Origin: Botryllus schlosseri
Taxonomy: Eukaryota
Reading direction: 5' to 3'
Assembly (NCBI GenBank): GCA_051294905.1
Contig: CM119372.1
Coordinates: forward strand, 11,720,001-11,784,000
DNA length: 64,000 nucleotides
Shown here: piece after piece, positions 12,879 through 63,877 of the stretch
Position numbering within the stretch: the first letter of the stretch is position 1
Layout: the number at the start of each line of letters is the position of its first letter
Notes under the pieces: model-generated
Told to the model about the DNA's origin: nothing
Databases searched by the model: none
What the model saw: the letters and a program-made list of their open reading frames with translations, nothing else
Program-made: the position numbers and the translations under genes

Positions 12879-15436
12879 GTGCAGGTTTTTTTAATCGAAA
12901 TTGGCACGCACAGCACATTGACTTTGATATAATAGTTTTCATACTTTGTGGTTACATAGTTTGGCCAGAAGGCCAGTACATAAATTATTGACCCGTATAC
13001 TATCTCACATGTCGTAGGCGTACTATGATCTGTGTTTCTATTGATGTGGTGATCTGAACCACCATTCCAAGCGATAGTTTGTTCCGATGATGAATTACAA
13101 CAACGTTATCCTTTTCAGCTTGCGGGGATTTGTTTAACCGGTCCTGGATCGCGAGACAAGTCAGCGTTAAATTGCCGGATTGTCGAAATCTGTAACCTCT
13201 ACCTTATCACCCTCTGAAGCCGCAAGAAGATTACACTTTCCAATTATCTAATCCCTTAACCGCACCGCGCGAGGTCAATTTTTGATGTATCGCCGCTGAC
13301 ACGTGAGAAACTTAGTAAGAGATTAAAACGACCCATGGCCAGCATGCAGGCCCGATCGATTTGATCGACCTGTATTTTCTCCCAATATGGTAGTCTATTG
13401 GAATGTAGTTTCGAAGAGGTGTAAAAGTATACAACTATACATGCAAGTGGATTCGGTCATCTGCAATAGGACCTGTTTTCGAAAAAAATTTACCTAAGCT
13501 TTGTTCGTGAGATTACCATTAAGTTGTATATCGTTACCTGTCATTTCTGCACTTGAAGACAAATCAAAAGGAAAGTATACATGCCGGTAAAAATGTACCA
13601 TATAATTGGTAAAAGCCAATACTCCAATCAAAACATGTGTCGACAGCATGCAGGCTGACGAAAGCGATACGATTCACAAGTGGATGAAGATATCGATTAA
13701 GAAATTCGGAGGAAAACGTACCGCCTTATACATAGCTTGGTTACAGTTTAATTGGAACAGAAAAGCTGAATACGCGCATGTTACAGAGCTAGACGACTTG
13801 AGCGCTATAGAGGTAATTCAAAAGTGCATGTATACTGTATACAATGCGTAAATTTGACCACATAATGCATAATCGTCGTCGTCTCGGTGTACACTGTACA
13901 GTCATTGGAAAGTAGTTGCGTCAAGAACTGAACAAGTTTCCATATTTTTCGCACCTTGTGAGCAAAGCGATAGCTCGTCAATGATTGAACGATATTTGAA
14001 ATTTATTAAGATTATATTTGGAATGGATTCTTACGAGTTGATAAAAAGCCGGCAAATGTACTGGTTGTACTGTTTTAGATTTATTTCTATGAGTAGAATA
14101 TCTTATGTATAGTTCCTAAGTAATTCTCAATCAAATTTTAGGGAGTTCTTCATGAATTTATGTTAATTTTTGGTATTAAAAGTTATGTTCAAGAGATCAG
14201 ACACAGCGTTTGGTTTATTGCAAGACTGATTTTCCCCTGCTACCGAGAGAGACATATGAATTAACTAACGGTGAAATACCATAGCACCGTTATTTATTTA
14301 TATTCGTGCTATTGGTAGTTACGCATAACCTTAAATCTAGAAACTAATTCTTGCGACAAATACGATTGTGAAACATGTTTAGACTATCGTTCAATATTTA
14401 TACATTGTATAGTCAACTGTGTACATTGATATCAATATTGCAGAAATTCGTGTACGTCTTCGCAAGGTATTGCCGGATGCAAATAACCGCCGACCAATTT
14501 TCAACAGTTATACGATTGCGATTTCGCCTTCAGTATGTTTATTATCCTGCTTGTTGGATTTTCGCCCGGGGAATACGTGATATTAAGAATAAGTTTCGTA
14601 ACATCTGCTGTAAATAGGATATGAACAACGCAATCGATACTCAGTGACAAGTTGTGCGTTGTTATTGCTACTACTGTCAATGTGTATTCCACTCACTATG
14701 AATAATGCCGAATTTAAATGTTACCTCGTCAACCTCGTCGATTATTTCCGAGCTGATCCGAGATGTTTAAGCCTTTCATGATCATCAGATTTCGAGACTT
14801 TGCTGCGCTGTGTTTTCCAATGGTGCTGAGTCGCGTCGGCCATTTTGTTTCCGTCGTGCCGTTGCAAAATATTATGCTTCTTTTCCTTATACTCAATATT
14901 TTGTGACTAGTTTTTCATAATAAAACACACCCCGCACAAACACTGTTTATTTTATGTTTTCGATAGCGCTATCAGAACTGTAAAATATATGAATAAAAAC
15001 GCAATATTTACTAAACAATTCCTCCGAAGCTATCTCAAACTGCATCGCGACGTACACACATGTCTCCACATCTGTGTATATAGTTAGACATAGCCGCATG
15101 TGCAAGTCCACGCTATATATATGCACGTTTGAACCTGTCTATGCATTCGGAAGCGGCAAAATGATGAGACTACCGATGAAATATCATTCTTTGTATATAT
15201 CTTAGTTTATTCCCATCGGATGTGCAAGTGTCGAGTGGCAGGGTTTTGTTGCGCAGTGTCACTTGTGGGAATTGGGGATAAACACGAGCTGAATATTGTA
15301 AATTATGATTTGGACGTGATTAATCGTGGAGAAACGCGGCACGGGTATGGTCTCGCTGATGTGAAAAGAAAGTTCTAAACCTCGTGGGCGACAGAGTTCA
15401 GAACCGTCCGATACATGGTATTATTTACCTTTCAGC

Positions 15437-15992
15437 TTGGGGTGCATTTAAACAAAAGGTGTTTTAAAACACTTTGTTCAAAACATGTTTTAGGCAATGT
15501 TTGAAACAAATGCCTTTTACAAAAAACAAAATTGAGTCTTTTTTTCAAACGTTGTATAATTATGCTATAATTGTGTAAATAATTTCGAAAACCATTTAGT
15601 ATGAGCCTACGGACGATTTTCGCCCAATATAGTGGAAGTATACGATATAGAGTGATTGGAACCCTCGAGATCGTCGTCGGTTCGACAGTTATAGCATGTA
15701 GATATATAGATCTGGTACGGAATAGCTGTTCTGATGATGATGATGACCGCTGACCGTAAAAATGCTGCATAACGATGTAGTCCTGGTTAAAGATATTTTG
15801 GTCTGTTAATGTGGCGGAAGCCCTTTTCGTCGAAGGTGCCATATTTACCCTGTATTTTCAATTGTCAATGGCAATCCACTGTGACGTCTAAGCTAAAAAA
15901 AAAAAAAAAAGTAAATAAAAAACATGTTTTAAAGAAGGGCCCTGTTATAAACATGCTTGTTTTGAATTGATTTTTGTTTAAGTGTAACCCTA
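15437..15992 (-). mobile_element. MITE family A, copy 3 (long form, inverted)
   Basis: Decayed TIRs. TSD CTTTCAGC/CTTTTAGC (7/8). Carries an extra internal segment shared with the copies at 25485 and 59035-59300. Confidence 0.88.
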
Positions 15993-25484: not shown

Positions 25485-25935
25485 TAGGGTTGCATTTAAA
25501 ACAAATGATTGTTTAAAAAAATTGTTTTTTTTGTTGTTGTTGTTGTATAATTGTGTAAAAACTTGCAAAAACCACGTTGCATGAGCCTACGGACGACGAT
25601 TACCGCCCAATATAGCCGACATATACGAAATGGGATGGTTGGAACCCTTGAAATAGTCGCTTTAACAGCTACAGTACGTAGATATAGATCATTGGTACGG
25701 AATGAATGTTCTGATGATGACGACCGCCGACCGTAATAATGCTGCAAGACGATGCAGTCCTGGTTAAAGATATTTTGGTCCGTATATGACAGGGATTGGA
25801 AGCCTATTTCGTCAAAGGAACTATATTTACCCTATATTTTCAATTGTAAATATCAATCCACTACGACGTCACAATTTAATATGCGTGACGTCATGGCTTG
25901 GAAAAATATTTAAAAAACATGTTTTAAACACAGCC
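25485..25935 (-). mobile_element. MITE family A, copy 5 (long form, inverted, one end lost)
   Basis: TAGGGTTGCATTTAAAACAAA at 25485. The body is homologous to 15437-15992. Confidence 0.85.
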
Positions 25936-26418
25936 CTATTTGGGACATTAGAGGCTAGTTTTAATATTTCATTCTCCATCAGCCGTATGGTACTCCATTT
26001 GAAAATGCTGACAGCAGTCGCGACTTTCAACAAAATATATCTGTTACGCTATTCATTTATCTGCACTTTCCAAAGCTGCTTAGGCTACTTTATTACTTTT
26101 TTGAAATCGTCACTCACTTTCTACGTCAGGTATGTTCTGGCCGGCGGTAGCATTGGCTACTTCCACGAAAGCAGAATCTTTCACCGCTACTTCCACTGTA
26201 ATTCCTTTTCAAGACAGTTCACGTCAGGCCGATATGTTTATACCTATGATTTCTGTAATAAATAAGCCCGCTCTAATATACATTCTAGTAACATCACTGG
26301 CTACATACTTTTACCCTGCCACCTCTCCGTTCATTATATTGGTGCGTGAATGCAAATCAAGAACAGACTTCACAGAAAGGGCTGAAAATGGACGCAACCG
26401 CATATTCCAATGTCAATC

Positions 26419-26424
26419 TTTATT
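26419..26424 (-). promoter_or_regulatory. Candidate polyadenylation signal of Hox4
   Basis: AATAAA on the minus strand about 320 nt downstream of the exon-4 stop. The hexamer is common in AT-rich DNA. Confidence 0.3.
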
Positions 26425-26740
26425 GGCAATCCATCCGATAAACATTCACCTCCATGTTACCACATCATATATAACGAGTGTTGTTACGTATAACGAAAGC
26501 TATGCATTCCGTAGATTGAACTAAATAAAAATGTGCCGTCTCATCGTAATTTATAGCTGTATATAATAGCAAAATAAAGGTCGCAGAGGATGGAGTCGCG
26601 TGGTTAAGCAATGCAATGAAGCCGCCTACACTATATTCAGGACAAAAGACTCTTGCATAGCGTTGCATCATATATATTTGTCAGCGGTGTGTGATATAAA
26701 TGGCTGAAATAGAAATGGCTGCATATCAGAGGACACGATC

Positions 26741-27393
26741 CTACGCGTAAAAGCTATTTGTCGAGGTATCTAGCGCTTTGTTCGTGACCCAAATGTTCGC
26801 CTGGTATCTCAAATTACCGCTCGCGCCCACTCCCTCGCGATGTCGACTGGGAAAAGACGCCAGGCTTACGCTAGAGTTTGCGTAACTGCCGATGCTTCTT
26901 CCCCAGCCCGCCGTGTCAGTTTCGTCGCTCAGTCGGAAGCTCGAGGAATACCGCGAATAAATCAATTCCGACGGTGTTTTCCTGGGACTCCGACCGTCTC
27001 GCGATTTTCCGGTAAGCGACGGAAAACTAGTAGGCCGCTTGAACCATACACTATCAACACCTTTATCTCGAAGTTTGCCATAGCCGCTGTCGACAGCGCC
27101 ATCCGGACAGGAAAACGACGACGCAAAGTTCGGGCGGTGGTGATGCACGGACGATGGCGTGGAAACGAACTGCAGAATGTCATACGAGGTTTCCTTTATT
27201 GGTATGTCGATAGATGGTACGGGAGGGTGTTGATAGGCACTCCTTGACCCATGTACGCCGGCGGAAGCGCCGGCTGCCGAAGCTGAAAGCCCGGTGACGT
27301 AAGCTGATCCGGCCAGCCTACCGTTGCCGTCGGTGGGCTCGTAAAACTCATCAGACTTCGGTGCAGCATAGAAGTCGGGCTCTGGGAATCTAC
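26741..27393 (-). CDS. Hox4: Putative Hox4 coding exon 4 (after 59-nt mini-intron 27452-27394)
   Basis: The GTAAGA...CTTAAC...GACCAG intron joins in phase to a 653-nt stop-free frame, (G)[24 protein letters not shown]...VHHHRPNF...TNSFYA*. This frame contains track ORF 26741..27148 and has four stops inside the intron. The polypyrimidine tract is weak. Confidence 0.7.
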
Positions 27394-27452
27394 CTGGTCC
27401 AAATCACATCGGTTAAGTAAAGTCTCACGGTTGCGAACGCTCTGAATCTTAC

Positions 27453-27915
27453 CCAACGGGTCGAATTTTCCTGGAAACGGACCAACAGCGCCACCGTCTG
27501 GTTTGCCGGATCCGAAGTCCGATTGGCGCTGATAGAAAAATCCGGGCGATCCATTTAGCATTCTCTCCACGGCAGAGTTCACGAACGTACGTCTCTGCGG
27601 TTGGTGCTGCGACGCGGCTGTGACATCGTAACCACCGAAATAGTTTTCCGGCAGCGGCCTCGACGCCGGACCGCGCGATTCGTAGCCGTTTATCGTTCTG
27701 TGTTCCGGCGAGTGGCTGTTCCCGTGCATCATGCTGTTCATTGGAGACCGGGAATGCATCGGGATGCCGTCGTTGCTCGGTGATGATAGCGTGGGAGATA
27801 TGTTTTGGTCAAACGAGCCGCTCATCCCGCTTCCTTGTAATACCCGAGATTTTGTATTTGGGAGTTTATTGTCTTTTTTCCATTTCATTCGTCGATTTTG
27901 AAACCAAATTTTGAC
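27453..27915 (-). CDS. Hox4: Hox4 coding exon 3 (homeodomain helix 3 plus C-terminal region). Extends to the stop at 27196 if the following 59-nt intron is retained.
   Basis: Acceptor tttcag|GTC AAA ATT TGG. Translates [24 protein letters not shown]..., where LPNTK is the Hox4/Dfd signature. Candidate donor TTG G|GTAAGA at 27452. Confidence 0.92.
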
Positions 27916-28958
27916 CTGAAACGTTAAAACAGTCTGAGTTAATTGGTGCGATCTCGTGATTGTACCGAAGTACACTCTGTGATCTGTAGAGAGCAGAAAG
28001 GCGAACAATGCAAAGCCGATGATGACACTACAGCAAATCTATAACATCGCACTTTATCAATTTTCAGTGCATAAAACGTCACAGTTCATCTCTTGCGTGG
28101 TCTTTAAGGCGGTCTGTAGCCTATATGGAATAGACGCCGTCTACGTGACCTTTTACGGACGCTGTAAAGTCAAGATAGATACGACTGAGTTAATTTGCGT
28201 CACATCTTGCTTGGCGTTTCGTTCGCCATTTTGACAAAGTGAAATTTTCAACACTCGTTACGTTTTCACCGATATGACCCTTTTCATTTGTCACAATACT
28301 AAGCATTTCTCAAAAATATCGCATTCAAGGCTGGACACTCTTCAAACATGACCTATGCAAATATACATGTCTTTGTGCCATATGTGCGTTCTACATCGTA
28401 CCGATGCTGCATGATTTGAAAACGAGTTGAAGATATTTTTTGTATAGTAAGTCGCAATAATTTAAAATACTATGAGCCCAATTTAAAACTAAGACGAATC
28501 AAGGATTCCCGTAGGTTTTCTAACAAAACATTAAGCTACATGCCAATGTTTTTAGTATACCGAAAAGCAGCATATTTTGGGTCGTTGTCAAAAATGATAT
28601 GAAAACTAATATTATATATACATAGCCAAATCCAGGAAAATGATGAGTACGTCGATATATGCATAAAATGTATCCAATATTTCACTATTAGCGCAATAGA
28701 AGAATTATATCACATTCATATCTTGATATTTTTAGTTTACATGCCGAATGGTATAGGCCAATGGCCCACAGATAGGTGTGGCGTTGGCCTCTAGGGGTAT
28801 AGTCCCATACCGTCCAAGCCCATACTGCGACAATTTCGGTATATACGAGTCAAATTAGAATGAGGAAGTACCCATGATGCAGTTTCGTAATTCAATCAGC
28901 AAGTTTTTAACCGCCCATTGTTTTATGCGATCATGATAAGACACTAAAGCGGCGTTAC

Positions 28959-29113
28959 CTGTCGTTCGGTCAGGCATAATGAATGCGCGATTTCAATTCT
29001 CCGTCGTCTTGTCAAGTAGCGATTGAAATGAAATTCTTTTTCGAGTTCCAGGACTTGATGGCGGGTATAGGCTGTTCGCGGTCGTTTCCCTTGTTCCGCT
29101 CCGCTGTTGAATA
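28959..29113 (-). CDS. Hox4: Hox4 coding exon 2 (linker plus homeodomain residues 1-44)
   Basis: Acceptor ttccttttcgatgcag| is in phase with exon 1. Translates (V)[51 protein letters not shown]. Donor CAG|GTAACG. This exon is not in the ORF track and was translated by hand. Confidence 0.97.
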
Positions 29114-32850: not shown

Positions 32851-33325
32851 CGTGACTTGCGTGTATTCGCTTCATCCACGGGTACACAGTCGGCGGTGAC
32901 TCGCCTTTCGATTTCATGCACTTTCCGAGTTTGCCTTCGTGGTCACCGATTGACACCATGCCGTCCATTCCATTCTTTCCGTATATATTCGTCCCGCCGT
33001 TGCGAAGTTCGCTTTTCACCAGTCGGTCGTTGACACCGTTGAACTCGCTGTCCCCCGTTTGAAAGAAATCGCCGGTCGGCCCTGGCATGGCGGAGGTGTT
33101 CAGGTTCTCGAGGCCGGACAGGTCTTCCTGGTGAGACCGCATCATGTTTTGCATGCCTTGAAGGTAATTACTGTTGCTCGAATTCTGGTTTTGAGCACGC
33201 AAGGGTGTTAGGGTCTCTGCGACGTTGGGACAGGAATCGGCGCTCACTGCGGTCGCCACGTTCATCTCAACGCCGAACGGCTGAGGTAGACTTGTCACGG
33301 CTACATCTTCGTGCAGAGCTGCCAT
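32851..33325 (-). CDS. Hox4: Hox4/Deformed-class homeobox protein, coding exon 1 (N-terminus to hexapeptide)
   Basis: ORF MAALHEDV...PPTVYPWMKRIHASH carries the YPWM hexapeptide. It ends at a canonical donor CAC G|GTAAGT (GT at 32850-32849), phase 1. An in-frame TAG lies three codons upstream of the ATG. Confidence 0.9.
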
Positions 33326-60913: not shown

Positions 60914-62122
60914 GCTGTAGCGCTTTTCGCCTATTTTGTCATTTGCGCCACGACATTATTTTCAGTAATTTCAGTCCATCAGGTCTTTGTAATGTTTCGG
61001 ACGAATTCCATGCTCGCTCTCTTTCATCATCGGTCTCTCCCGTTTATCATGCGCCCATAGCATAAACTTGGCGCATTCGTATTGCGGATGTTCGGTCGAC
61101 AAGGCGGATTTTCTGTGAACAAGGAGGGTTTCCTTGCCATCAAAGCATTACGATCCAACCCTGAGATTCACATCACCAAAGCAGACAAGGGATCCGGTGT
61201 TGTCATTCTAAACAAAGCTGACTACATTTCGAAAATGGAATCATATTGCATGACGAAACTAAATTTATCTCGCTCGGTTCGATTTCGGAATTCGATAACA
61301 CACAAGACGACTGGCAAACCGTCTGCTGGCCTTGAAGAAAAGCGATGTCCCAGCAGCAGAAATATACAGTGTTATCAGACCAACGGGGTCGAAAAGACCA
61401 CGCATGTACGGACTGCCAAAAACTCACAAAGACAATGTCCCAGTGAGACCTATACTTTCCATAATCGGGTCTGCTCAACATCAGCTGGCAAAATGGCTTA
61501 TTGAAATCTTGGAACCTGTTCGGGAAATGTACGGCACGGAATGTGTTCGCGATTCGTTCACTTTCGCTGATGAAATACGAAACCTGGGCTTGTCGAATCC
61601 AGACGTGTTTCTGAGCTCATTTGATATCTCTAGAGTCTCTTTGCGAACGTTCCGCTGCAAGAGACTATTGATATTTGTACCGACGCGCTGTACGGTGGTG
61701 AGGTACCAATTGGTTTCGGAATTCGATAACACACCTAAAATTGAAAGACGAGTGAAAGACGACCACCACTATCAATCCCACGTAACGTCTTCGTTGAGCT
61801 TTTACAGGCTACAACCTGTTCCGTTGAGTTTAGCTTTAACGATGTTATGCTTAGACAAATAGACGACGTAGCGATGGGTAGTCCCCTGGGACCTATTTTG
61901 GCTAACATTTTCGTAGGATATTATGAGGGCTAGCTTCTCTCCCAGCGTGAGTCCGTCAAACCACTGTTGTACCTCCGATATGTAGATGATACCTTTTTCA
62001 TATTCAGGAATGAGTCGGAGTGTTATCAATTTCTCAATCTCTTAAACTCGCTACACCCGGCCTTGCAATACACAATTGAAAAAGAACGCAATAACTCACT
62101 ATCATTTTTGGACGCCTTAGTC

Positions 62123-63150
62123 CAGTGGTTCTCAACCCTTTTTCCTCCAGCGCCCCCTTTCAGAAATTACCGTGCTCTAGCGCCCCCACACTCACCCCCA
62201 CCCCATATTGTAAGGAGTGTAATAAAGACAATTTGTAAGAGGGAGGACCGTAACAGCACTTCGTCAGTCCCCCTAAAAACGATTGTCTTGGGCACCCATA
62301 GCGTGATAAACCAAACTTCTTGGGGCTTAGTCAGCAAAGTTTGTGTGGCCTGGTCACCCTAGACGCCGAATTTTTATATAATGCATGAACGAATAGGTGA
62401 TAATTGCATATATATGTCGCTACAAAGTTTTTATCCTCTCTGCCCACGTAATCAGATTTACCAGTAGCGCTGAGTGAGCTGTTGTCTTGGAAAATGAACG
62501 CCAGGTAAAATTAATAATTGAACATATTCGGACGTGCCCGTTGGTACAAATTACTTCATTACATGTTGTTATTTTGTTACCTCTTGTCCGCTATATAGTC
62601 AAAGAATATTGAAACGCATAATCGTATTAAACTTAAGTGAGTACACGGTTCAAAATTGGTATTTATTTACAGGCAAATAATTTTTGTCTGATTGATGTTA
62701 TTTGTCCTGTGGGGTGCAGATTGCGACAATATGACAATTCGGCACGAGCGATTTAAGCACCTAAGGACAATTTGACTTATGTACAGCGAAGTTTACGGTC
62801 AACAGAAGGACAATCTTCTTCGGCTAAGGTTTTCTCGCTGACGATCTTTATGGCTCACTTTTCGGGGTCCCATATTCGCCATAACTTCATATGTCTTCGT
62901 GCATCGTGGCGTGGTAATGGCCGACGCCGAATTACCTATTTCTATTTTCTATGATTATGCCTATTTTTTCGTGGGGGATTCGTCAAAACTTGATGTGTAA
63001 TTTATGTTCAGTCACCGATATAATTTAGGGCACCCTTCGAGCCCATTCTCCCTCAATTGGGGGTATGGGTTGCAGCAGTTTCGGTCCTGGTAAGAGGTCA
63101 AAGTCCAGTCGGTCTTTCCGGGACTTTAGTATTGTAAATATTTCACACGA
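62123..63150. mobile_element. Insertion interrupting the Penelope-like RT, starting with an hAT-type end
   Basis: The RT frame is lost right after SFLDALV, where CAGTGGTTCTCAACC begins. The right boundary is approximate and no matching TIR was seen. Confidence 0.6.
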
Positions 63151-63877
63151 TCACAATGCAAGTTTCAAGGCATAGAGGGGAAATTGACGCAATTCAACGC
63201 AGAAAAGTCATCAGAGCCGAACGAACGAACAACCAAAGATGTTTATATCCATCTACCTTAGATTGGTCTCATTTCCACCCGCTTCGAAAAACGATTGATT
63301 TCTGCGGTCAGTAAGTGTTACGACACAGTCAAAACCAATGTGATTTTTAGGACTACACAAATGCTCCCTTCAACACGCAAAGACGTGCTCCCCGAACTTC
63401 AACAAAGTAATGCAGTGTACGAATATAAGTGCCACTGTGGTTGTAGCTACGTGGGAAGAACTTCAACGCATCTGCAGGAACGCATAAACCAGCATGTCCC
63501 CAGATTTATCAGAACACGTGCATCAGGCTCGGTGAAAAGCTCACCGTTAACTCATCCGCTTAAGCTTGATGCTGACCGATCAAAGGCCATTAGTTCTGCC
63601 ATAGGCAAACATCTGTTAGATAATCCGATTTGTGCGAATAATTATCGAGATTGCAGATTTCGTGTCGTTGGGAGGGGCCGTTCACACTTCCATTTGTGTG
63701 CCTTGGAGTCGACTTTTATCAAAATACACCAACCGAAATTCTGTCAACAAAAGGAGTTCGTGTACCACCTAAAAATAGTACATTGAACGCTTTCTCATTC
63801 GAAATTTCATGCTGGTGACGTCATATTTTGTGATACGATTGTTGATATACAATGTTCTTTCCAATTCTCTGCTAGTT

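Follow-up and report, generated by a model that had tools for sequence, protein, structure and literature searches.

Does the last intron of a single Hox gene allow that gene to encode two proteins with different C-termini, and if so, what chooses between them? The question arises in a 64-kb window (the whole stretch of DNA that we analysed, on contig C2 of a 495.5-Mb genome in 219 contigs), where an earlier note had proposed that splicing of a hidden 59-nt intron gives a main Hox4 form of 581 aa and that retention of this intron swaps its tail. Our analysis keeps the two tails and replaces the switch: we consider it highly likely that ascidian Hox4 has a real, conserved dual-coding last exon, and that this is driven by tandem acceptors 4 nt apart and not by intron retention. 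Coordinates are collected in Table 1.

Table 1. Features of the Hox4 locus, in positions of the 64-kb window.
Feature	Position	Strand	Remarks
Hox4 coding exon 1	32851..33325	-	ATG at 33325; TVYPWM hexapeptide near exon end; N-terminus matches S. clava MAALH..
Hox4 exon 2	28959..29113	-	homeodomain residues 1-45; Pfam PF00046, E=1.5e-14; donor confirmed by 1043-nt RNA joint
Hox4 intron 2	27916..28958	-	1043 nt; constitutive control; joint in runs X23 (2 reads), X1 and X3
Hox4 exon 3	27453..27915	-	homeodomain end, LPNTK, disordered region common to the isoforms; evidence from alleles and homologs
Intron 3, short form	27394..27452	-	59 nt, GT..CAG, frameshifting, leads to frame-2 tail (581 aa); joint in run X1 only
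Intron 3, long form	27390..27452	-	63 nt, GT..TAG, in frame, leads to frame-1 tail (428 aa); joint in runs X1 and X3
GTAG between tandem acceptors	27390..27393	-	4 bases alternatively included
Putative branch point CTTAAC	27412..27417	-	branch A at 27413; placed from sequence alone
Dual-coded segment	27196..27389	-	194 nt; frame 1 stops with TAA at 27198-27196; both frames compared with S. clava
Frame-2-only extension	26741..27195	-	3'UTR of the frame-1 mRNA; stop TAG at 26743-26741
Frame-2 block 1	27098..27178	-	QFxxTPxSVHHHRPxxxSSFSCPxG; each of the six pairs among four sequences shares 19-22 of 27 residues
KRPxS motif	27017..27040	-	found in window, P0008 and P0009 but not in S. clava
Frame-2 C-terminal block	26744..26815	-	YQAN[IV]W...; 7/14 to 15/24 identical (50-63%); YQAN.W invariant 4/4
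Candidate poly(A) signal AATAAA	26419..26424	-	X3 contig runs 265 letters past 26664

Hox4 is the single homeobox gene on the minus strand of the window. As in Hox group 4, it encodes an Antp-class homeodomain (PF00046) with an upstream YPWM hexapeptide (TVYPWMKRIH), and directly C-terminal to the homeodomain is LPNTK, a motif that we take to be diagnostic for this paralogue group. The splice junction of exon 1 lies outside the read-mapped region and was placed by homology; the sole named homolog found for the gene was a Styela clava protein, which points to a stolidobranch ascidian. Hox3-like and Hox2-like homeoboxes, assigned by reading their diagnostic residues, are found on the same strand, ~51 and ~143 kb further downstream, an order that matches the ascidian arrangement of Hox4, Hox3 and Hox2 in one direction reported in the available text of PMC5602962. 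At the level of sequence, the gene is thus identified as an ascidian Hox4. An Rfam scan of the whole window at the gathering threshold gave no match, so no miR-10 lies near Hox4; miR-10 was likewise not found in Halocynthia, according to the same available text (PMC5602962). Elsewhere in the genome, two near-identical central-Hox-like homeoboxes, L007 (G000:C2 ~7.326 Mb, minus strand) and L008 (~9.338 Mb, plus strand), are inverted, 2 Mb apart and without the usual intron. They diverge soon past the homeodomain, where the L008 copy ends a few codons later, and are possibly a recent duplicate.

The 59-nt intron itself is as the earlier note described it, running on the minus strand from GTAAGA at 27452 through CTTAAC (27417-27412) to CAG at 27394. 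The acceptor region reads CAG GTAG ATT, and a second AG (in the TAG ending at 27390) lies 4 nt beyond the first. Translation reproduced the products given before for the 59-nt splice (581 aa, frame 2) and for retention (449 aa), and the 63-nt splice gives 428 aa in frame 1. Frame 2 contains four stops in the intron and opens at 27403. The frame-1 tail is 64 residues long and rich in Pro, Ser, Thr and Gln; the frame-2 tail is 217 residues long, and proline accounts for 7% of it versus 16% of the frame-1 tail. Counted from the putative branch A, the ends of the two acceptors are 19 and 23 nt away, preceded by a pyrimidine tract that is indeed weak (7/16, versus 9 in intron 2 and 12 in intron 1). 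In the window the retained intron (63 nt) is stop-free and in frame, like an exitron; the possibility that this read-through is chance had been raised, and by shuffling a stop-free intron is unremarkable (P=0.28). The stretch of 194 nt read in two frames exceeds the threshold for dual coding given in the available text of PMC13247117 (60 nt or more with coding in two frames).

We compared four of 24 runs over 26664-29063, namely the contig runs X1 and X3 and the raw-read runs X23 and X21. None of the listed runs is recorded as RNA; X1 and X3 were judged to represent spliced RNA, because both carry the 1043-nt joint of intron 2. The 63-nt joint (27389->27453) was present in both contig runs, at a depth of 7.26 in X1 and 9.05 in X3, in the latter within a 1349-nt contig. 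The 59-nt joint was present in one of the two, X1 (depth 4.1), in one short contig with a shorter side of 26 letters and the flag 'between: not known'. X1 also yielded an unspliced 115-nt contig across intron 3 at a depth of 9.38, compared with 2.5-3.2 in background patches of intron 2, and X3 showed zero coverage of intron 3. We infer that the forms in X1 make up a three-way assembly bubble, where short sides are expected. At face value the 59-nt form would constitute about one third of the spliced molecules in X1, contig depth being a poor measure of level; that its joint is missing from X3 is no evidence, because contigs drop rare variants. In neither raw-read run (X23 with 39 reads, 35 of them fitting only partly, and X21 with 23 reads) was the junction bin covered at all, and both were uninformative on the ratio. 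Thus, the two close AGs are both used in RNA in X1, and the distal one in X3. The comparison of spliced and unspliced RNA that the earlier note had suggested therefore recovers its 59-nt joint and an unspliced form, both in X1, together with the 63-nt joint, which it had missed and which occurs in two of two contig runs. Downstream, the X3 contig would reach ~26399 and the X1 contig would end at ~26089 if colinear; a second AATAAA lies at 26094, besides that at 26424, and the arrangement suggests two poly(A) sites downstream of Hox4.

Both tails are found in relatives. An exhaustive phmmer search with exon 3 as query returned three proteins, including S. clava isoform X1, which falls in one cluster with isoform X2. 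The S. clava gene LOC120342629 has an isoform X1 of 562 aa and an isoform X2 of 438 aa (XP_039267475, XP_039267476), with 372 residues in common; exon 3 is 48% identical between S. clava and the window. Isoform X2 carries the frame-1 tail without the 21 intron residues, a 63-nt-type junction, and isoform X1 carries the frame-2 tail, with 48% identity to the window over 104 residues. In an offset scan, one DNA could encode both S. clava tails only at +4 (one of 17 offsets), with 197 of 200 bases fixed, and the deduced 4-nt insertion ends in AG. The offset is deduced from two proteins of an automated annotation and not from DNA; because only +4 reconciles the isoforms, S. clava would, on that annotation, have the same tandem acceptor. 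Across the overlap, identity to S. clava is 42/65 in frame 1 and 26/64 in frame 2, and when the window is compared with the inferred S. clava DNA, 19, 10 and 30 differences fall at the first, second and third codon positions of frame 1, a skew from which it follows that frame 1 dominates the overlap. Dominance of one frame is usual in dual-coding regions, according to the available text of bioRxiv 10.64898/2026.05.28.727796.

A profile built from the frame-2 tails of the window and S. clava retrieved two more proteins, P0008 and P0009, among 1763 candidates. The P0008 sequence can accommodate an intact frame-1 tail whose stop falls at the same codon (33/40 residues; mean 12 and maximum 21 in 1000 shuffles), and it differs from P0004, a relative's protein with a 63-nt-type junction, at no fewer than 3 of 40 positions. 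Frame 1 is therefore kept in the window, P0004 and S. clava and compatible in P0008, and frame 2 is kept in the window, S. clava, P0008 and P0009. Because P0008 and P0009 are known as open frames from the search, a species without frame 2 would be invisible to it. A search for frame-2-tail homologs among long proteins (0 of 3095 candidates) and one with P0004 residues 226-424 (0 of 225 candidates) both missed the known S. clava protein and so had low sensitivity, which makes the homolog survey incomplete; a metagenome scan for related DNA gave 259 pattern matches, none confirmed. With both joints in RNA and both tails kept in relatives, the proposal of two alternative Hox4 C-termini and a dual-coding segment after the intron is borne out, and the conservation suggests that both Hox4 proteins matter. 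The read-through, by contrast, is closed in both relatives that show it, P0001 and P0003, whose sequences continue into the intron and end 3 and 44 residues past the donor glycine; conserved intron retention was rejected on this ground.

Frame 2 remains open for 152 codons beyond the frame-1 stop and, at 220 codons, is the second-longest stop-to-stop frame of the window. A stop-free extension of this kind is not chance-like (P=0.001 in shuffled window sequence); the openness of frame 2 across the overlap is unremarkable (P=0.50 when frame 1 is recoded synonymously). Both conserved blocks lie entirely beyond the frame-1 stop. Block 1 is more conserved than exon 3, with 70-81% identity across four diverged sequences compared with 17-30% in the spacer, and substitutions within the blocks are conservative (I/M/L, V/A, S/T, I/V, R/Q). 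The spacers from block 1 to the C-terminal block measure 99, 100, 101 and 79 residues and are stop-free in all four sequences. GC content is 54% in the frame-2 extension and 52.5% in exon 3, and it is 39% just past the frame-2 stop. Judged by these comparisons, the extension is a case of protein-level conservation inside an apparent 3'UTR. The window's frame 2 contains no Met and is therefore reachable only by splicing or recoding; for the same reason, a separate or nested downstream gene started by its own ATG was rejected. The tail is predicted to be unfolded (pLDDT 39, from a shallow four-sequence alignment). Searches of Pfam, PDB and the ESM Atlas gave no useful match to a family, solved structure or cluster, as expected for short linear motifs, and the genome held no second copy of the tail. 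On the plus strand at 26774-27247, a 157-codon antisense open frame is in exact codon register with frame 2 and is probably a shadow of the coding frame.

Allelic differences bear on which form predominates. Of 33 allele rows we counted 30; the three omitted are 27894, which comes from a contig of another homeobox that fits only in part, 28989 in exon 2 and 28649 in intron 2. Alleles in exon 3 were synonymous in 11 of 12 cases (0.27 expected). Those in the overlap were synonymous in frame 1 (4/5) and not in frame 2 (0/5), and they support selection on frame 1 in this segment. The 581-aa form had been put forward as the main one; given these alleles and the 63-nt splice in two of two contig runs versus the 59-nt splice in one of two, the main product is probably the frame-1 form of 428 aa. 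Selection on frame 2 is not evident from the alleles: in the frame-2-only part 5 of 13 were synonymous (0.29 expected, P=0.32), with no stops or indels listed. Eleven of these 13 differences fall after block 1, and none in the C-terminal block; the two within block 1 are a synonymous difference in the codon of an invariant Pro and an amino-acid replacement where the sequences vary. Alleles also alter an otherwise invariant Asp (to Gly) and, in run X1, the Ser of KRPxS (to Trp). No allele differences are listed in 26741-26990 or 27130-27264, compared with 13 in 26991-27129, and these allele-free stretches could be shared haplotype blocks or strong local constraint.

While conservation past the frame-1 stop suggests a coding function, the +4 acceptor might be splicing noise that escapes NMD, and the blocks might act at the nucleotide level, as RNA sites in the 3'UTR or as an enhancer, and merely resemble conserved peptide. 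This would sit well with the missing synonymous excess among frame-2-only alleles, with allele-free stretches that could reflect nucleotide-level constraint (or a shared haplotype), and with the view that most tandem splice sites are noise (PMC8055015, available text). However, a DNA or RNA element needs no single stop-free frame over ~100 diverged codons, with triplet length changes, in four lineages, and the conservative substitutions within the blocks and the fall in GC content at the frame-2 stop likewise speak for protein; we regard this explanation as improbable. To much the same degree, we doubt the reading of frame 2 as a genuine by-product of weak function, translated and kept stop-free mainly to tune Hox4 dose or stability, without a distinct activity. 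A generic destabilising tail requires neither a 27-residue block as conserved as block 1 nor an invariant YQAN.W, and the proline content of the frame-2 tail is below that of the frame-1 tail, even though its spacer is nearly unconstrained, it looks unfolded, and mammalian frameshifted tails encoded in 3'UTRs are often more disordered and less stable (PMC7392665, available text). Least probable by some way is the model of the earlier note, in which a main 581-aa form gives way to the frame-1 tail by intron retention: the unspliced contig in run X1 is deeper than the intron-2 background and than either spliced branch, the retained frame has no stop and the pyrimidine tract is weak, but normal splicing at the second AG already reaches frame 1, retention merely adds 21 residues that frame-1 homologs lack, intron 3 is not covered in X3, the retained frame runs into stops in both P0001 and P0003, and its read-through is within chance, so that retention as the conserved switch is largely refuted.

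In our preferred reading, dual coding through tandem acceptors, one donor would be joined to either of two competing acceptors in the last Hox4 intron. Choice of the distal TAG would remove 63 nt and keep frame 1, producing the 428-aa Hox4. Choice of the proximal CAG would remove 59 nt and leave GTAG in the mRNA, producing the 581-aa Hox4 in frame 2, with hexapeptide and homeodomain unchanged and a tail predicted to be disordered and to carry short conserved motifs. Close AGs in such branch-point geometry compete at the second splicing step, and here both AGs, which follow the weak pyrimidine tract at 19-23 nt from the putative branch A, would be expected to do so. Both mRNAs would be translated, and neither should be subject to junction-dependent NMD, since each has its stop in the last known exon; the point made in the earlier note about NMD applies to every form, each being without a known junction downstream of its stop. 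Since hexapeptide and homeodomain are common to both forms, differences would be expected in cofactor binding, strength of activation or repression, modification and half-life. The frame-2 motifs may be binding or phosphorylation sites that alter cofactor use, activity or stability and leave DNA binding unchanged. Hox W-motifs dock on Pbx, and by analogy our guess is that the tryptophan motif of the frame-2 tail might do the same. As a separate observation, the Pbx homeodomain in this genome is split by an intron ahead of helix 3, and its exon occurs twice, at L011 (G000:C16 ~15,905,000) and L015 (~15,934,100), ~29 kb apart on the same strand and with the same translation; either the exon or the gene has been duplicated in tandem, or the second copy is a product of the assembly.

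The usual view is that each Hox gene makes one protein, whose isoforms vary around the linker between hexapeptide and homeodomain. Elsewhere, the p46 and p54 forms of JNK arise because the last acceptor is displaced by a few nucleotides, the short JNK tail being only a few residues, and in PBX1/PBX3 the frame change arises by exon skipping. JNK is a kinase, unlike Hox4, whose two frames each encode a long conserved tail (64 and 217 aa); PBX1 and PBX3 belong to the TALE class, whereas Hox4 is a Hox gene with tandem acceptors. Non-triplet splicing that leads to dual-coded last exons is a known class (PMC13247117, PMC7392665, PMC8055015, bioRxiv 10.64898/2026.05.28.727796, PMC8746764; citations in this paragraph refer to the available portions of these texts). 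In the dual-coding catalogues (bioRxiv 10.64898/2026.05.28.727796, PMC13247117), as in Hox4, an upstream splice choice sets the frame and gives different C-termini, one frame dominates selection on the overlap, and the longer frame runs beyond the stop of the shorter one. These catalogues cover human and C. elegans, whereas Hox4 is an ascidian case, and their available texts contain no word starting with 'hox'. As in Hox4, a splice event in JNK (MAPK8/9/10) changes the C-terminal frame to give short and long forms (PMC8746764), and JNK is listed as an ancient vertebrate dual-coding region; the a and b isoforms of PBX1/PBX3 are likewise homeodomain factors with a conserved dual-coded terminal region (both bioRxiv 10.64898/2026.05.28.727796). 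NAGNAG-type tandem sites share with Hox4 two acceptors a few nucleotides apart, both used; most acceptor shifts span 3 nt, and NMD generally suppresses those that disrupt the frame, whereas Hox4 combines a 4-nt shift in its last intron with a long conserved second frame (PMC8055015). In splicing-accessible coding 3'UTRs, too, a frameshifting splice lets the ORF run on into what is 3'UTR for the other isoform; those cases mainly involve skipping of the penultimate exon and proline-rich destabilising tails, in contrast to the 4-nt acceptor shift, discrete conserved motifs and lower proline content (relative to the main tail) of Hox4 (PMC7392665).

The orthologous S. clava pair (RefSeq LOC120342629, isoforms X1/X2) was already present in automated annotation, under the names 'Hox-A2b-like', 'Hox-A3-like' or 'uncharacterized', which are silent on dual coding. 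The words 'splic' and 'isoform' are absent from the main texts of PMC5602962 and PMC8122590, whose supplements could hold Hox4 isoform sequences. No paper describing dual coding of Hox4, of any Hox gene or of an ascidian Hox gene was found in a literature search whose scope excluded most subscription papers and supplements. At this locus a single 4-nt splice choice would swap the entire Hox4 C-terminal tail, and a conserved frame of 152 codons sits where a one-isoform annotation would put 3'UTR; ascidian Hox4 studies would need to state the form used. An invertebrate-chordate transcription factor would thereby join the short list of deeply conserved dual-coding exons, and the system is easy to test, because mutating one AG can force either form. 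More tentatively, and as a possibility that we rate as rather unlikely, stolidobranch ascidians may derive two functionally distinct Hox4 factors from one gene via a regulated 4-nt acceptor switch, in which the long form carries lineage-conserved motifs, including YQAN[IV]W as a possible second cofactor-docking site, and the ratio shifts with stage or tissue (larva versus adult, budding, regeneration). If true, a lineage whose Hox cluster is reduced and broken would contain a Hox gene that has enlarged its repertoire by turning its own 3'UTR into coding sequence.

The remainder of the window contains repetitive sequence. Downstream of Hox4, 25490-25840 is a dispersed high-copy repeat of ~350 nt with 3827 candidates in the genome, 40 of which were scored at 83-89% identity; a similar translated stretch lies at 15432-15857. 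On the plus strand, 61061-63786 holds broken reverse-transcriptase-like frames (with a YLRYVDD motif recognised by eye) and, after them, a GIY-YIG match that is weak and misses the cut-off (E=0.009), and is probably a decayed Penelope-like element.
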